A stretch of 6,770 nt of DNA. Origin: a virus (Duplodnaviria > Heunggongvirae > Uroviricota > Caudoviricetes). Of the stretch, positions 1-6,770 are shown piece after piece. The notes under the pieces were generated by a model that had not been told where the DNA came from, made no database searches, and was given only the letters and a program-made list of their open reading frames with translations. Location of the stretch: IMG/VR virus record IMGVR_UViG_2563366946_000004, one strand, 5' to 3'. The translations under genes and the position numbers were made by a program. Position 1 is the stretch's first letter, and each line of letters opens with the position of its first letter.

Positions 1-2875
1 ACCATCACGTCGGCAAACATCGACCGTCTGCGCTTTACCTTCGGTGTGCAGGCACTGGTGGAAACCACCTCAAAGGGGGACAGGAATCCATCGGAAGTCC
101 GCCTGCTGGTTCAGATACAACGTAACGGTGGCTGGGTGACGGAAAAAGACATCACCATTAAGGGTAAAACCACCTCGCAGTATCTGGCCTCAGTGGTGGT
201 GGATAACCTGCCGCCGCGCCCGTTTAATATCCGGATGCGCAGGATGACGCCGGACAGCACCACAGACCAGCTGCAGAACAAAACGCTCTGGTCGTCATAC
301 ACCGAAATCATCGATGTGAAACAGTGCTACCCGAACACGGCACTGGTCGGCGTGCAGGTGGACTCGGAGCAGTTCGGCAGCCAGCAGGTGAGCCGTAATT
401 ATCATCTGCGCGGGCGTATTCTGCAGGTGCCGTCGAACTATAACCCGCAGACGCGGCAATACAGCGGTATCTGGGACGGAACGTTTAAGCCAGCATACAG
501 CAACAACATGGCCTGGTGTCTGTGGGATATGCTGACCCATCCGCGCTACGGCATGGGGAAGCGTCTCGGTGCGGCGGATGTGGACAAATGGGCGCTGTAT
601 GTCATCGGCCAGAATTGCGACCAGTCGGTGCCGGATGGCTTTGGTGGCACGGAGCCGCGCATCACCTGTAATGCCTACCTGACCACACAGCGCAAGGCGT
701 GGGATGTTCTCAGTGATTTCTGCTCGGCGATGCGCTGTATGCCGGTATGGAACGGGCAGACGCTGACGTTCGTGCAGGACCGACCGTCGGATAAGGTGTG
801 GACCTATAACCGCAGTAATGTGGTGATGCCGGATGATGGTGCGCCGTTCCGCTACAGCTTCAGCGCCCTGAAAGACCGCCATAATGCTGTTGAGGTGAAC
901 TGGATTGACCCGGATAACGGCTGGGAGACGGCGACAGAGCTTGTGGAGGACACGCAGGCCATTGCCCGTTACGGTCGTAACGTCACGAAGATGGATGCCT
1001 TTGGCTGTACCAGCCGGGGGCAGGCACACCGCGCCGGGCTGTGGCTGATTAAAACGGAGCTGCTGGAAACGCAGACCGTGGACTTCAGCGTGGGTGCAGA
1101 AGGGCTTCGCCATGTACCGGGCGATGTCATTGAAATCTGTGATGATGACTATGCGGGGATCAGCATCGGCGGGCGCGTGCTGGCGGTGAACAACCAGACG
1201 CGGACACTGACGCTCGACCGTGAAATCACGCTGCCATCCTCCGGCACCACGCTGATAAGCCTGGCTGACGGACAGGGGAATCCGGTCAGCGTGGAGGTCC
1301 AGTCCGTCACCGACGGCGTGAAGGTAAAAGTGAGCCGTGTTCCTGACGGCGTTGCAGAATACAGCGTGTGGGGGCTGAAGCTGCCGACGCTGCGCCAGCG
1401 CCTGTTCCGCTGTGTGAGTATCCGTGAGAACGATGACGGCACGTATGCCATCACTGCCGTGCAGCATGTACCGGAAAAAGAGGCCATCGTGGATAACGGG
1501 GCGCACTTTGACGGCGACCAGAGCGGCACGGTGAATGGTGTCACGCCGCCAGCGGTGCAGCACCTGACTGCCGAAGTCACCGCAGACAGCGGGGAATATC
1601 AGGTGCTGGCGCGCTGGGACACGCCGAAGGTGGTGAAGGGGGTGAGCTTTATGCTTCGCCTGACCGTGGCAGCGGATGACGGCAGTGAGCGGCTGGTCAG
1701 CACGGCCCGGACGACGGAAACCACATACCGCTTCAGGCAACTGGCGCTGGGGAACTACAGGCTGACAGTCCGGGCGGTAAATGCGTGGGGGCAGCAGGGC
1801 GATCCGGCATCGGTATCGTTCCGGATTGCCGCACCGGCAGCGCCGTCGCAGATTGAGCTGACACCGGGGTATTTTCAGATAACCGCCACGCCGCATCTTG
1901 CGGTTTATGATCCGACGGTACAGTTTGAGTTCTGGTTCTCGGAAAAGCGGATTGCGGATATCAGGCAGGTTGAAACCACAGCACGCTATCTTGGCACGGC
2001 GCTGTACTGGATAGCCGCCAGTATCAATATCAAACCGGGCCATGATTATTATTTTTACATCCGCAGTGTGAACACCGTTGGCAAATCGGCATTTGTGGAG
2101 GCTGTTGGCCAGCCGAGTGATGATGCATCCGGCTATCTGAATTTTTTCAAAGGAGAGATAGGGAAAACCCATCTGGCTCAGGAGTTGTGGACGCAGATTG
2201 ATAACGGTCAGCTTGCGCCTGACCTGGCTGAAATCAGGACGTCCATTACGGGTGTCAGCAATGAAATCACGCAGACCGTCAATAAGAAACTGGAAGACCA
2301 GAGTGCAGCGATCCAGCAGATACAGAAGGTTCAGGTTGATACAAATAATAACCTGAACAGCATGTGGGCTGTGAAGCTGCAGCAGATGCAGGACGGACGC
2401 CTTTATATCGCGGGTATTGGTGCCGGTGTTGAGAATACTCCTGACGGTATGCAGAGTCAGGTGCTGCTGGCGGCGGACAGGATTGCGATGATTAATCCTG
2501 CGAATGGCAACACAAAGCCGATGTTTGTTGGGCAGGGCGATCAGATATTCATGAACGAAGTGTTCCTGAAATATCTGACGGCTCCCACCATTACCAGCGG
2601 TGGCAATCCCCCAACGTTTTCACTGACACCTGATGGTCGACTTTCTGCGAAAAATGCGGATATCAGCGGTAACGTGAACGCGAACTCCGGGACGCTCAAC
2701 AACGTCACGATTAATCAGAACTGTCGGATTCTGGGAAAACTGTCAGCTAACCAGATTGAAGGTGATATTGTCAAAACGGTGGGAAAAGCCTTTCCGAGAA
2801 ATGGCAGTTATGCCAGCGGTACAATAACGGTCACTGTGTACGATGACCAGGCTTTTGACCGTCAGATAGTAGTCC
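1..2875 (+). pseudogene. J: Lambda-like tail tip / host specificity protein J (central tail fibre), N-terminal and central part; 5' end lies upstream of the window; interrupted by an IS insertion at 2876
   Basis: Frame 1 is open from base 1 with no upstream stop in the window. The translation carries long stretches I recognise from lambda J (e.g. [78 protein letters not shown], fibronectin-III-like segment, [20 protein letters not shown]). J-derived coding ends at 2875 where the IS terminus TGAACC begins. The supplied ORF 46..3036 continues into the IS only as read-through. Confidence 0.9.
2873..2875. repeat. Target-site duplication (TCC), left copy, flanking the IS insertion in J
   Basis: TCC lies immediately outside the IS terminus at 2873-2875 and again at 4186-4188. 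A 3-bp duplication is typical of IS3-family elements. Confidence 0.75.
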
Positions 2876-2900
2876 TGAACCGCCCCGGGTTTCCTGGAGA
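2876..2900. repeat. IS terminal inverted repeat, right end (IRR)
   Basis: TGAACCGCCCCGGGTTTCCTGGAGA matches the reverse complement of 4161..4185 at 23 of 25 positions (AA/TT mismatch at positions 15-16). Confidence 0.8.
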
Positions 2901-2917
2901 GTGTTTTATCTGTGAAC

Positions 2918-3808
2918 TCAGGCTGCCAGATCATCGTTTCCGATGGAAGCATAATAAGCTTTTTCTGCTTCTGCCGGAGGAGTATGGCCCAGCCTTTCCA
3001 GCAATCGTCGATTGTTATACCAGTCCACCCACGTGAGTGTGGCCAGTTCCACTTCTGCACGGTTTTTCCAGCTCTTACGGTGTATTACCTCCGCTTTGTA
3101 AAGGCCATTGATGCTCTCCGCCATCGCGTTGTCATACGAGTCGCCTGTACTTCCTGTTGATGCCAGTAATCCGGCTTCCTTAAGCCGCTGTGTGTAGGCC
3201 AGCGATACATACTGAGAACCTTTATCACTGTGATGGACCGTGCCGGACGGTCGACGGGCCCATAACGCCTGCTCCAGTGCATCCAGCACGAATGTCGTTT
3301 CCATGGACGATGAGACCCGCCACCCCACGATGTATCCGGCAAACACATCAATGATGAACGCCACATAGACGAAGCCCCGCCATGTGCTGACGTAAGTAAA
3401 ATCAGCCACCCACAGCTGGTCAGGTCGTTCTGCCACGAACTGACGGTTTACGCGGTCGCCTGCGGCAACGGCTTTCCGGCTGATGGTCGTACGGACCTTT
3501 TTACCCCGGAGAACACCGGCAAGTCCCATAACCGCCATGAGACGTGCCACAGTGCATCTGGCCACTCTGATACCTTCCCGTAACAACTGACGCCAGACTT
3601 TACGCACACCGTATACCTTGTGATTTTCATCGTATACGCGCTGTATCTCTTTCTTCAGCCAGTCATCGCGCTGCGCACGGGCACTGCGTTTATCCGGATG
3701 ATGTCGCTGTTGCTGACAGTGGTAATACGTTGACGGGGCAATATGCAGTTCGCTGCATAGCGGTCCGACCCCGTACTGCTCACGCAGCTTATCCAGCAGT
3801 GGCATCAT
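2918..3808 (-). CDS. IS3-family transposase OrfB (DDE catalytic domain), normally expressed as an OrfAB fusion by -1 frameshifting
   Basis: Supplied 296-aa minus-strand ORF with DDE-type motifs ([31 protein letters not shown]). It overlaps the orfA stop in the -1 frame. The stop (TGA, complement of 2918-2920) sits just inside the IRR. Confidence 0.9.
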
Positions 3809-3815
3809 TTTTTCC
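3805..3815 (-). other. Programmed -1 ribosomal frameshift site (A6 slippery run) at the orfA/orfB overlap
   Basis: Minus-strand sequence ...CTGGAAAAAATGATGCCA...: orfA ends ...LWKK-TGA, and orfB continues MMPLLDK in the -1 frame. An A AAA AAN heptamer at the orfA/orfB overlap is the canonical IS3-family arrangement (established knowledge). Confidence 0.7.
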
Positions 3816-4131
3816 AGAGGCGGTCGAACTCCGCCTTCGCAAAATAAGCGGAAGCCTGGCGAAGGATATCGTTACTGCGGCGCAGTTCACGATTTTCACG
3901 TTCCAGCTCTTTCAGACGCTGACGTTCAGCGGTGGTGAGCCCTCCATCACCGCCCCCGGTATCCCGCTCATGCTGGCGAACCCAGACACGCAGAGTCTCC
4001 GGCGTACAGCCAATCTTTGGAGCAATGGAACAAATTGTCGCCCATTGTGAGTCATATTCGCTCTGACTTTCCAGAACCATACGAATCGCCCTCTGACGGA
4101 CTTCGGGGGAAAAACGAGTATTTTTAGTCAT
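3805..4131 (-). CDS. IS3-family transposase OrfA (HTH DNA-binding and leucine-zipper region)
   Basis: Supplied 108-aa minus-strand [59 protein letters not shown]...[39 protein letters not shown] is 54 bp inside the IS left end. Confidence 0.9.
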
Positions 4132-4160
4132 CCTGTTTACCTCTTTCTCAGGAAGTTTAG

Positions 4161-4185
4161 TCTCCAGGATTCCCGGGGCGGTTCA
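4161..4185. repeat. IS terminal inverted repeat, left end (IRL) of the minus-orientation copy
   Basis: Reverse complement of 4161..4185 is TGAACCGCCCCGGGAATCCTGGAGA, identical to the start of the second IS copy at 6451. Confidence 0.85.
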
Positions 4186-4188
4186 TCC
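4186..4188. repeat. Target-site duplication (TCC), right copy
   Basis: TCC immediately follows the IS end (GGTTCA at 4180-4185) and matches 2873-2875. Confidence 0.75.
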
Positions 4189-4490
4189 CCCCCGTTCTGT
4201 TTCGTGGGGGTAAGCATGAAAACTTCAACAGCAACAACCAACAGTCATACTGGTATTCAACCTGTAAGCTGCAGGTACTGAAGAACGGACAGGAAATCTT
4301 TCAGCAACCCGCGACGGATGTCAGCAGGGTATTTTCATCAGTCATTGATATGCCTGCCGGACACGGCCATGTCACCCTGACTTTCAATGTTTCTTCATAT
4401 GGTGCTAATAACTGGACGCCAACGACCAGTATCAGCGACCTTCTTGTTGTTGTGATGAAGAAATCTACAGCCGGTATCAGTATCAGTTGA
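4186..4490 (+). pseudogene. J: C-terminal ~100 codons of tail tip protein J, separated from the rest of the gene by the IS
   Basis: The frame starting at 4188 is open to TGA at 4488-4490 and encodes [100 protein letters not shown]. This resembles my recollection of the lambda J C-terminus (...DMPAG.G......[14 protein letters not shown]). With the IS and one TCC removed this frame is contiguous with the upstream J frame (...[15 protein letters not shown]...). Confidence 0.8.
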
Positions 4491-4507
4491 ATTTTATAAC
4501 CCAGATA

Positions 4508-4536
4508 CGGGCGCCAGAAATGGCGCCTTTTTTATT
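4508..4536 (+). terminator. Rho-independent terminator between J and stf
   Basis: Perfect 6-bp stem GGCGCC (4510-4515) / GGCGCC (4522-4527) with loop AGAAAT, followed directly by TTTTTT (4528-4533), 18 bp downstream of the J stop codon. Confidence 0.65.
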
Positions 4537-4548
4537 TGTGGAGTGAAT

Positions 4549-6453
4549 ATGGCAGTACAGATTTCAGGCGTGCTGAAAGACGGTGCAGGAAAACCGATAC
4601 AGAACTGCACCATTCAGCTCAAAGCAAAACGTAACAGCACCACGGTTGTGGTGAACACGGTGGCCTCAGAAAATCCGGATGAAGCCGGACGTTACAGCAT
4701 GGATGTCGAGTATGGCCAGTACAGCGTTATCCTGCTGGTTGAAGGTTTTCCGCCTTCACATGCCGGGGCCATCACCGTGTATGAGGATTCTAAGCCGGGG
4801 ACATTGAATGATTTTCTGGGCGCTGCAACAGAAGATGATGTTCGTCCGGAGGCACTGTATCGTTTTGAAAAGATGGTGGAAGAGGTGGCACGCAACGCTG
4901 AAGCCGCCTCTCAGAGCGCAGCGGCAGCAAAGAAATCAGAAACAGCAGCGGCATCGTCCAGGAATGCGGCGAAAACATCAGAGACGAATGCAGGTAACAG
5001 CGCGAAAGCGGCAGCTTCTTCAAAAACAGCCGCACAAAACGCAGCAACAGCGGCAGAACGTTCAGAGACAAATGCCCGTGCGTCAGAAGAAGCCTCCGCA
5101 GACAGTGAAGAGGCTTCCCGCCGTAATGCAGAGTCAGCCGCTGAAAATGCCGGAGTCGCCACCACAAAAGCGCGGGAGGCCGCAGCAGACGCAACAAAGG
5201 CCGGGCAGAAAAAGGATGAGGCTCTGTCGGCAGCGACACGGGCTGAAAAGGCGGCAGACCGCGCAGAAGTCGCAGCGGAAGTGACTGCAGAGCCCTATGC
5301 GAATATAGTGCCGCCGCTGCCTGATGTGTGGATACCGTTTAACGATTCACTGGATATGATTGCGGGTTTTTCTCCGGGCTATAAAAAAATAGCTATTGGT
5401 GACGATGTGGTTCAGGTCGCCAGTGATAAACAGGTTAATTTCAGTCGCGCATCAACGGCAACATATATCAACAAATCTGGCGAACTGAAAACGGCGGAAA
5501 TTAATGAGCCGCGATTTGAGTGTGATGGCCTGCTTATTGAGGGACAAAGAACGAACTACATGCTCAATTCGGAAAGTCCAGCCAGCTGGGGGAAGTCATC
5601 AAACATGGATGTGCCCGAAACCGGGACAGATAGTTTTGGTTTTACTTATGGAAAGTTTGTCTGCAACGATTCTCTGGTTGGGCAAACTTCGGCTATTAAT
5701 ATGGCATCAATTGCTGCAACAAAGTCAGTTGATGTCTCAGGCGATAACAAGTACGTGACAACCTCATGCCGTTTTAAAACAGAACGACAGGTAAGGTTAC
5801 GTATACGGTTTGATAAGTATGATGGTAGTGCAACAACTTTTCTTGGCGATGCGTACATTGATACGCAAACGCTTGAAATTAATATGACAGGTGGGGCTGC
5901 CGGCAGAATTACGGCACGAGTCAGGAAGGATAAGACCACAGGCTGGATTTTTGCAGAGGCAACGATTCAGGCAATTGATGGTGAGTTAAAAATAGGCTCT
6001 CAGATACAGTATTCTCCTGAGCGGGGTGGGGCAACAGTATCTGGTGACTATATTTATCTTGCCACCCCACAAGTAGAGAATGGGCCGTGTGTATCATCAT
6101 TTATTATTTCAGGAGGCAGCGCAACGACAAGAGCCAGTGATTTGGTTAGTATCCCTACCAGAAATAATCTTTATAAGTTACCATTTACTTTTTTACTTGA
6201 GATTCATAAAAACTGGGATATTGCACCAAACGCCGCACCCCGCGTGTGGGATATAGCAGCAGCCAATACCGGGCAATCAGCAATTGCAGCAATCAACAGA
6301 GGTAGTGGTAAGTTATATATGAGTCTGTCAAACCCTTCAGGCTTGTATGTTAATAGCGCAGCGACAGATGTATTTGCAGAGAAAACCACATTTGGATGTA
6401 TTGCAAAAGCTGATGGTCACTTTCATGTGGTGACAAATGGTAAAGCGGTTTGA
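4549..6453 (+). CDS. stf: Side tail fibre protein (Stf-like); lambda-Stf-like N-terminal anchor, Ala/Ser/Glu-rich repeats, distinct C-terminal domain; 3' end abuts the second IS and is probably truncated
   Basis: ATG at 4549 is preceded by GGAG (4540-4543) at 5-nt spacing. The supplied ORF starts at an upstream GTG (4543), but MAVQISGVLKDGAGKPIQNCTIQLKAKRNSTTVVVNTVASENPDEAGRYSMDVEYGQYSVILLVEGFPPSHAG matches the N-terminus of lambda Stf / Rac StfR as I recall them (MAVKISGVLKDGTGKPVQNCTIQLKA...). The stop TGA (6451-6453) is the first three bases of the IS terminus. Confidence 0.85.
   Translation: MAVQISGVLKDGAGKPIQNCTIQLKAKRNSTTVVVNTVASENPDEAGRYSMDVEYGQYSVILLVEGFPPSHAGAITVYEDSKPGTLNDFLGAATEDDVRPEALYRFEKMVEEVARNAEAASQSAAAAKKSETAAASSRNAAKTSETNAGNSAKAAASSKTAAQNAATAAERSETNARASEEASADSEEASRRNAESAAENAGVATTKAREAAADATKAGQKKDEALSAATRAEKAADRAEVAAEVTAEPYANIVPPLPDVWIPFNDSLDMIAGFSPGYKKIAIGDDVVQVASDKQVNFSRASTATYINKSGELKTAEINEPRFECDGLLIEGQRTNYMLNSESPASWGKSSNMDVPETGTDSFGFTYGKFVCNDSLVGQTSAINMASIAATKSVDVSGDNKYVTTSCRFKTERQVRLRIRFDKYDGSATTFLGDAYIDTQTLEINMTGGAAGRITARVRKDKTTGWIFAEATIQAIDGELKIGSQIQYSPERGGATVSGDYIYLATPQVENGPCVSSFIISGGSATTRASDLVSIPTRNNLYKLPFTFLLEIHKNWDIAPNAAPRVWDIAAANTGQSAIAAINRGSGKLYMSLSNPSGLYVNSAATDVFAEKTTFGCIAKADGHFHVVTNGKAV
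4897..5280 (+). repeat. Low-complexity Ala/Ser/Glu/Thr-rich tail-fibre repeat region inside stf
   Basis: The translation shows degenerate recurring units (SETNA..S..AA.., AAKTSETNAGNSAKAAASSKTAAQNAATAAERSETNARASEEASADSEEAS...). The DNA here is GC-rich and open in several frames on both strands, which produces the spurious overlapping ORFs 4808..5284(+), 4790..5239(-) and 4911..5165(-). Confidence 0.7.
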
Positions 6454-6475
6454 ACCGCCCCGGGAATCCTGGAGA
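6451..6475. repeat. IRL of the second IS copy
   Basis: TGAACCGCCCCGGGAATCCTGGAGA, identical to the IRL of the first copy. Confidence 0.85.
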
Positions 6476-6504
6476 CTAAACTTCCTGAGAAAGAGGTAAA
6501 CAGG

Positions 6505-6770
6505 ATGACTAAAAATACTCGTTTTTCCCCCGAAGTCCGTCAGAGGGCGATTCGTATGGTTCTGGAAAGTCAGAGCGAATATGACTCACAATGGGCGACA
6601 ATTTGTTCCATTGCTCCAAAGATTGGCTGTACGCCGGAGACTCTGCGTGTCTGGGTTCGCCAGCATGAGCGGGATACCGGGGGCGGTGATGGAGGGCTCA
6701 CCACCGCTGAACGTCAGCGTCTGAAAGAGCTGGAACGTGAAAATCGTGAACTGCGCCGCAGTAACGATAT
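6505..6770 (+). CDS. IS3-family transposase OrfA of the second IS copy, 3'-partial (window ends)
   Basis: ATG at 6505, 54 bp inside the IS end. Translation [30 protein letters not shown]... is identical to orfA of the first copy over the visible part. Confidence 0.9.
   Translation, partial: MTKNTRFSPEVRQRAIRMVLESQSEYDSQWATICSIAPKIGCTPETLRVWVRQHERDTGGGDGGLTTAERQRLKELERENRELRRSND

Follow-up and report, generated by a model that had tools for sequence, protein, structure and literature searches.

Insertion sequences of the IS3 family move by a copy-out/paste-in route that passes through a circular intermediate, and inverted pairs of insertion sequences can recombine. IS629 (isoforms IS1203 and IS3411) is known from E. 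coli O157:H7 and from Shigella prophages. In O157, 62% of IS629 copies reside in prophages or prophage-like elements, and insertion creates duplications of 3-4 bp without a sequence-specific target (PMC3271280). Inverted repeats also bracket the 3' tail-fibre coding DNA of the Mu G/Gin, P1 C/Cin and e14 P/Pin cassettes, which have a serine invertase, short crossover sites and two alternative fibre C-termini.

Here we describe a window (the whole stretch of DNA analysed, 6,770 nt) in which two IS629 copies lie in tail fibre genes. The window matches positions 5453-12222 of a scaffold from a draft E. coli genome (L004, GCA_000350645.1) at 100%, and forms one contig of it, with N gaps on both sides and its right end inside the second IS copy. 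L004 is a short-read draft scaffold in which repeat interiors are consensus sequence, and the rest of the prophage falls mostly within a 4.6-kb scaffold gap. The window is very probably the tail-fibre end of a phage-21-like lambdoid prophage with a Jouyvirus backbone, in which two independent simple insertions of IS629 broke J and stf. The closest matches to the prophage backbone come from ExPEC/APEC-type strains, and sitABCD cargo adjoins stf; a literature search for phage 21 with sitABCD found no papers. The features of the window are as follows.

1..2875, plus strand: 5' part of J (central tail fibre/host-specificity protein), codons 103-1060 of 1160; NCBIfam lambda_TipJ, 1987 bits
2873..2875, no strand: left TCC target-site duplication of copy 1, from flank reading; intact genomes have a single TCC
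2876-4185, minus strand: IS629 copy 1, complete, 1310 bp; IRR 2876-2900, IRL 4161-4185
3808..2918, minus strand: orfB of copy 1, 296 aa; Pfam rve
3734..3850, minus strand: ALIL pseudoknot, an IS3-family frameshift stimulator; Rfam RF01497, 120 bits, E=1e-31
4131..3805, minus strand: orfA of copy 1, 108 aa; Pfam HTH_Tnp_1
4186..4188, no strand: right TCC target-site duplication of copy 1, from flank reading
4189..4490, plus strand: detached 3' fragment of J, codons 1061-1160; TGA stop 4488-4490
4509..4538, plus strand: terminator-like hairpin and T-run in the J-stf gap; phage 21 has an annotated terminator in the same place
4549..6453, plus strand: stf', truncated side tail fibre gene, ATG at 4549, codons 1-634 of 686; Pfam phage_tail_N
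6448..6450, no strand: left GTT target-site duplication of copy 2; the right GTT lies outside the window, at L004 13294-13296
6451..6770, plus strand: first 320 nt of IS629 copy 2; IRL 6451-6475, orfA start at 6505, cut by the contig end and scaffold gap

The IS629 copies and the fibre genes they interrupt

A repeat search of the window returned inverted arms at 3866-4185 and 6451-6770 (320 nt, 100% complementary) separated by a spacer of 2265 nt (4186-6450). A perfect inverted repeat of this length within 6.8 kb is far beyond chance, and it bears out the first-pass annotation, which had described two inverted IS copies bracketing a segment; copy 1 occupies exactly 2876-4185 and copy 2 begins at 6451. 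Judged from its sequence, the element is IS629, a member of the IS3 family. Over all 1310 nt, copy 1 shares 99.0-99.1% identity with elements annotated as 'IS3 family IS629' in Stx phages, and its transposase matches NCBIfam transpos_IS3 at 314.6 bits. Its 25-nt terminal inverted repeats, TGAACCGCCCCGGG(TT/AA)TCCTGGAGA, match at 23 of 25 positions, and they start with TG and finish with CA, which together with a length of about 1.3 kb is typical of the IS3 family. Copy 1 also has the two overlapping reading frames of IS629, orfA (HTH) and orfB (DDE/rve), with the ALIL pseudoknot region spanning both their overlap and the A-run GGAAAAAATGA, and the two frames are probably joined via a programmed -1 frameshift.

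The identity of the two copies is a softer matter. The statement that they are identical stands for the 320 nt visible in the window; including the outer 121 nt of copy 2 that reappear at L004 13173-13293, identity covers only 441 of 1310 nt, and repeat consensus could have produced it. About 868 nt of the copy 2 interior is an N gap in L004, and it is an assumption that copy 2 is complete and matches copy 1 throughout. L005, a sister assembly, shows 197 nt of copy 1, and over that length copy 2 departs from it at 2 positions. Claims of exact IS identity or of structural isomers cannot be supported by a draft contig whose end falls within a repeat. The existence and orientation of copy 2 look sound on the assembled sequence. 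Beyond the N gap in L004 lie the other IS end and the second GTT, followed by the last 159 nt of stf, so the final 52 stf codons are located past copy 2.

Copy 1 interrupts J at codon 1060 of 1160; the start of this gene lies 306 nt upstream of the window. The reading frame continues into the element as a fusion ORF (46..3036). The receptor-binding domain of J (Pfam PF12421, Ig_GpJ_C) covers aa 1038-1160 of the reconstructed protein; copy 1 splits this C-terminal domain, and the detached fragment holds most of it. The stf gene, earlier taken to be carried intact in the enclosed segment, is in fact cut after codon 634 of 686, and the stop codon of stf' (TGA, 6451-6453) is formed by the first three bases of copy 2. 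The C-terminal region of Stf (residues 560-681) gives a weak Laminin_G_3-like match, and the intact stf site in another assembly, L003, reads ...AAAGCGGTTAATGAAG.

Both IS copies and one copy of each duplication were removed in silico, and the excised sequence aligned with phage 21 (OL657228.1) free of gaps at 99.5% over 6337 nt. The reconstructed Stf is identical to that of phage 21 at 686 of 686 residues and the reconstructed J has 1 difference in 1058 aa. The 5' part of J is collinear with phage 21 J, and a patch at window positions 21-888 holds 25 of the 30 mismatches to phage 21 found within positions 1-2875. This gap-free alignment, together with the TCC duplication, confirms the earlier reading that the present arrangement is collinear and non-inverted.

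Origin of the arrangement

Both copies are flanked by direct duplications of the kind that IS629 makes, TCC/TCC at copy 1 and GTT/GTT at copy 2, and because each copy has its own 3-bp duplication, both are simple insertions that arose independently. Copy 1 entered J at codon 1060 of 1160 in minus orientation, duplicating TCC, and copy 2 entered stf after codon 634 of 686 in plus orientation, duplicating GTT. The first-pass annotation had proposed a check of whether the outer flank of copy 2 carries a target duplication of its own; it does, so copy 2 was inserted on its own and did not come from a rearrangement. The inner 2265 bp is native DNA in native orientation, collinear with phage 21, and the same layout is present in L005. 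A recent common origin of the two copies is probable, for example through a local hop of one of them. The arrangement is real but ordinary.

Other origins can be imagined for a 2.27-kb segment that lies between two IS copies, among them a composite transposon in which IS629, the J 3' end with stf', and IS629 arrived, or can move, as a unit. We consider this exceedingly improbable, and as an origin it is refuted. A composite transposon would share an outer duplication and enclose foreign cargo, whereas the outer triplets here differ (TCC versus GTT), each IS has a duplication of its own, and the inner DNA carries J and stf onward in their native form, exactly as phage 21 has them; the matches listed for 4186-6450, moreover, sit in phage-21-like prophage contexts. 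The earlier suggestion of composite-transposon-like mobilization is not supported, given the unlike outer flanks and native inner DNA. A single intramolecular replicative transposition (inversion-insertion) could account for copies that are inverted, near each other and identical where visible. Such an event would invert the intervening DNA and leave one copy of a duplication, in inverted orientation, at each IS, but the segment is collinear and the duplication at each IS is direct, and we regard this route as next to impossible. It is also conceivable that the draft assembly itself created copy 2, or made it look perfectly identical to copy 1, by wrongly joining a repeat-consensus end to stf, since the contig stops 320 nt into a multi-copy repeat before an N gap and the repeat interiors of short-read assemblies are consensus. 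However, each junction of copy 2 in the assembly joins it to unique flanking sequence, the two GTT triplets match, and identical junctions occur in the independent assembly L005, making an artefact highly improbable.

Possible inversion of the enclosed segment

The pair, as about 1.3 kb of near-identical inverted DNA, would be a passive potential substrate for RecA. A stronger proposal is that 4186-6450 actively inverts by homologous recombination and is polymorphic in the population, with consequences for how stf and the J 3' end are expressed. In its favor, the inverted copies, 2.27 kb apart, share identical sequence over at least 441 nt and presumably over all 1310 nt, and in E. coli O157 genomes inversions are driven by recombination at repeats (PMC7430833; PMC8743559). 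However, only two assemblies (L004 and L005) carry the pair, and both are collinear, although a minority inverted isomer in the culture might go unseen in a consensus assembly. The TCC/TCC and GTT/GTT duplications have been kept at their respective IS copies, and matching direct duplications at each IS imply that the fixed state was reached with no inversion or with an even number of them. The window, moreover, contains neither a gene for a site-specific recombinase nor an alternative fibre exon, and both genes are already truncated, leaving orientation without a functional read-out. Together these observations make active inversion very unlikely. The first-pass annotation had also proposed that stf and the J 3' fragment would change orientation relative to the late operon on inversion; that idea proves functionally empty because the same two IS copies have already split J and truncated stf.

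The stf junction was sought more widely with 400-nt queries in both IS orientations, and was absent from 5426 complete E. coli genomes; a lone '100%' junction match among these consisted of two separate pieces joined by the search tool. None of the 5426 genomes with the junction means none with the IS pair. The junction likewise had no match in metagenome and viral contigs, nor in species-representative genomes, a set that says little as it has one genome per species. Since the junction is absent from the complete genomes and from the metagenome and viral contigs, the inverted isomer could not be sought there, and junction sequences are in any case the same in both isomers, such that short contigs cannot distinguish the orientations. 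Recombination between the copies is thus possible in principle but unevidenced. An inversion, were it to occur, would be a by-product with no functional effect rather than a switch.

The stf insertion site, consequences and comparison with known systems

The position at which copy 2 entered stf (nucleotide 6450/6451) is of some interest in its own right. At this same nucleotide, another assembly has IS629 in the opposite orientation, and a fourth assembly has sequence that is neither stf nor IS629. Other independent IS629 insertions were seen in J and downstream of stf. The left flank of the stf site, GCGGTT|AA, resembles the IS629 terminus GCGGTTCA. It is nevertheless doubtful that the nucleotide following ...AAAGCGGTT is a true preferred target. 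Comparison of six IS629 insertion sites, with both flanks where available, gave no consensus target. A shared motif suggested by matches of about 18 nt past the IS end was discarded: in the one flank read (L008), the similarity was partial and apparently due to chance. If the preference were true, it could reflect targeting of sequences that resemble the inverted repeats, or selection for disabling the receptor-binding fibre ends of sit-carrying phage-21-like prophages, the latter amounting to the grounding of a useful prophage. Recurrent events at one stf nucleotide are a small lead on target choice in the IS3 family.

J and stf are both interrupted in their C-terminal regions, and the positions of the domains suggest a loss of phage infectivity. 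We infer that any particles of this prophage would now lack working receptor-binding fibres, and that it is decaying and immobilized; probably no adsorbing particles can be produced, yet the prophage retains the sitABCD iron/manganese transporter. J and stf should be annotated here as IS-disrupted pseudogenes, and the significance of the locus beyond annotation is little.

Set beside the systems described at the outset, the J/stf/sitABCD region is most like that of phage 21, with a J-stf terminator in the matching position and a Stf that is 100% identical once restored, but unlike in phage 21, both fibre genes of this prophage are interrupted. The interrupting element agrees with IS629 in its length of 1310 bp, its 25-nt repeats, an orfA of 108 aa and an orfB of 296 aa, an A-run with an ALIL pseudoknot, a 3-bp duplication and a prophage location. 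Compared with the known IS629 of O157, the backbone is a phage-21-like sit-carrying prophage rather than an O157 Stx phage, and the mechanism is no different.

The likeness to Mu G/Gin, P1 C/Cin and e14 P/Pin, in which inverted repeats bracket 3' tail-fibre coding DNA in a prophage, is superficial only. The repeats here are whole IS elements, and the two genes have simply been disrupted. Recombinase ORFs in the window and the L004 flanks are limited to the IS629 transposase genes, with no invertase of the Gin/Cin/Pin type, and the segment has a single stf frame (equal to phage 21 Stf residues 1-634) and no opposing fibre ORF. With the repeat-mediated inversions of E. coli O157:H7, the locus shares the principle that inverted homologous repeats of mobile elements are recombination substrates (PMC7430833). 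Those inversions are mostly large and were observed by optical mapping or long reads, whereas the two assemblies that carry the IS629 pair both hold the segment in its non-inverted form.

Structure and identity of the IS629 pair

The repeat search of the window returned a single outstanding inverted pair (3866-4185 and 6451-6770), whose 320-nt arms are 100% complementary and lie 2265 nt apart. The arms belong to two IS copies, and both the repeat search and the junction sequences agree with the coordinates and orientations that a first-pass annotation had given them:

2876-4185, minus: copy 1, a 1310-bp element
2876-2900 and 4161-4185: terminal inverted repeats of this element, matching at 23/25 positions (repeat search)
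Within copy 1, minus: two overlapping ORFs of 108 and 296 aa, with HTH_Tnp_1 and rve domains and an NCBIfam 'IS3 family transposase' match
From 6451, plus: copy 2, running off the window end

As read from the sequence, TCC borders copy 1 on both sides (GTAGTCC/TGAACCGCC on the left and GGCGGTTCA/TCCCCCCG on the right), while copy 2 opens at 6451 with the opposite IS end from that at the left border of copy 1, TGAACCGCCCCGGGAATCC. Over its full 1310 nt, copy 1 is 99.0-99.1% identical to Stx-phage features annotated 'IS3 family IS629', and Rfam places an ALIL pseudoknot (RF01497, 120 bits) across its ORF overlap, beside an A-run. The element is IS629, which abounds in E. coli O157. In this lineage, prophages or prophage-like elements account for 62% of its copies, and its duplications are 3-4 bp, without a sequence-specific target (PMC3271280). 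The best phage-collection match to the IS (99.5%, AF017626.1 731-2040) falls under the annotation 'int: integrase'; the record, from E. coli strain EC38, bears the label Escherichia phage 21, and the match represents a further IS629 insertion in this prophage family.

Two insertions in a phage-21-like prophage

Searched as an exact protein, the truncated Stf was found in four NCBI assemblies. The window is 100% identical to positions 5453-12222 of the scaffold locus L004 (GCA_000350645.1, scaffold KB732220.1), where N runs flank it on both sides (788-5452 and 12223-13172). The window is one contig of a draft scaffold, both of its ends being contig ends beside N runs, and its right end falls inside copy 2 since the assembly did not resolve the repeat. 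Past the gap, the scaffold resumes with the final 121 nt of the IS, followed by GTT and AATGAAGTTT, the continuation of stf; the uninterrupted stf site of the related prophage locus L003 reads AAAGCGGTTAATGAAG. Comparison of this far end with the intact site shows that copy 2 has a direct 3-bp duplication of its own, GTT. Such a duplication on the outer flank had been proposed as the mark of an independent insertion, as opposed to a rearrangement, and GTT/GTT identifies the former. When each IS was excised in silico together with one of its two duplication copies, the remaining sequence aligned with phage 21 (OL657228.1) gap-free over 6337 nt at 99.5%, with Stf identical at 686/686 residues and a single difference in 1058 aa of J. 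This alignment upholds the collinear, non-inverted arrangement described earlier, and the pair arose by two simple insertions, independent of each other, without rearrangement or net inversion.

The description of the copies as identical holds over 320 nt in the window and 121 nt beyond the gap, but about 868 nt of the interior of copy 2 is unsequenced, and short-read assembly may yield one consensus for all the IS copies of a genome. In L005, a sister assembly with the same two-IS layout, two mismatches separate the copies (3223-3419 vs 5685-6013), at positions 99 and 102 counted from the IRL end, among the 197 nt of copy 1 that are visible; either exact pair identity is not general or this difference is assembly noise.

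Outside the IS copies, the window matches the J-stf region found in many phage-21-like prophages and, at 99.4%, that of phage 21 itself. The phage 21 gene order, J (central tail fibre, 1160 aa), terminator, stf (side tail fibre, 686 aa), two small ORFs, and sitDCBA, is common to chromosomal relatives, of which ExPEC/APEC-type strains match most closely. Just to the right of stf, phage 21 (8969-11137 of locus L012) and L004 (14128-17577) carry the sitABCD iron/manganese transporter operon, which is phage cargo because it is present both in the phage 21 genome and in chromosomal prophages.

Within window 1-2875, mismatches to phage 21 and two related prophages (L001 and L003) total 28-30, with 25 in the first 888 nt and some at 1381-1390; divergence from the three is ~2.9% in the first 888 nt vs 0% at 1391-2875. 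For phage 21, 25/30 mismatches cluster at 21-888, reflecting either a patch acquired by recombination in J's conserved part or a consensus of collapsed repeats beside the 4.6-kb scaffold gap. The GC content of J falls from ~0.62 to ~0.50 near 1800-1950, which suggests a mosaic boundary inside the gene. A 625-aa ORF antisense to J (295-2172, minus), in its GC-rich (~60%) part, is most likely a non-coding shadow ORF.

Fibre gene damage and recurrent IS629 insertion

The stf ORF (ATG at 4549) had been taken as intact, but is truncated: its stop codon, TGA 6451-6453, consists of the three bases with which copy 2 opens. Because copy 1 interrupts J at codon 1060 and copy 2 removes Stf residues 635-686, encoded past the IS, both insertions strike distal C-terminal parts of fibres, in J the receptor-binding domain (Pfam PF12421, residues 1038-1160). 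The C-terminal region of Stf (560-681), whose role is uncertain, gave a weak, sub-threshold Laminin_G_3-like Pfam match. The prophage is presumably unable to make adsorbing virions, and it still carries sitABCD. In this phage-21-like prophage, the inactivation of J and stf by two IS629 insertions is real but ordinary, and its biology is already known.

The stf site after AAAGCGGTT (6450/6451) holds IS629 in plus orientation in the window and in L005. At the same nucleotide, the assembly locus L006 (7438/7439) carries IS629 in the opposite orientation, with J intact, and the L007 contig (3521/3522) ends 8 nt into TGAAGTGG, which matches neither stf nor IS629. We take TGAAGTGG to resemble an IS911-type end, although it is too short for identification. 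The position could be a hot spot for insertion; the data support no claim of enrichment because the loci are ascertainment-biased, the exact-protein look-up being able to return only this site. Its left flank, GCGGTT/AA, resembles the IS629 terminus GCGGTTCA, and no consensus target was found among the other IS629 sites examined. In the tail region of related prophages, three further independent IS629 copies lie in J of L002 (9088-10397), 215 nt downstream of the window's J site, in J of L003 (8590-9899), 286 nt upstream and in the other orientation, and in L001 (11585-12894), downstream of the 92-aa ORF that comes after stf.

Inversion, transposition and fibre switching as possible readings

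Inverted IS pairs can recombine, and the 4186-6450 segment could conceivably invert by recombination between the IS629 copies, although nothing here shows that it does. Inversions driven by repeats have been described in O157 (PMC7430833). Against inversion at this locus, the matching duplications TCC/TCC and GTT/GTT imply that the fixed sequence has undergone either no inversion or an even number of them. The first-pass annotation had suggested comparing related genomes for either orientation; both copies occur in two assemblies only, L004 and the closely related L005, and each is collinear. The stf junction with IS629 occurs in 0 of 5426 complete E. coli genomes, so the pair is absent from all of them, and the IS junction sequences were not found in metagenome and viral contig collections. 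Because short junction sequences are identical in both isomers and only molecules spanning a whole IS discriminate, short-read data cannot settle orientation. The consequence earlier attached to inversion, a reorientation of stf and the J 3' end, would be functionally silent, since both genes have already been disrupted; inversion, if it occurs, thus carries no functional stake.

A composite-transposon origin, also raised earlier, is excluded by the unlike outer flanks and by inner DNA that continues the native locus, as is intramolecular inversion-insertion. ORF and domain analysis found no invertase gene in the window and the L004 flanks and no alternative fibre exon in the window, and the arrangement is therefore not a Gin/Cin/Pin-type switch, which has both.
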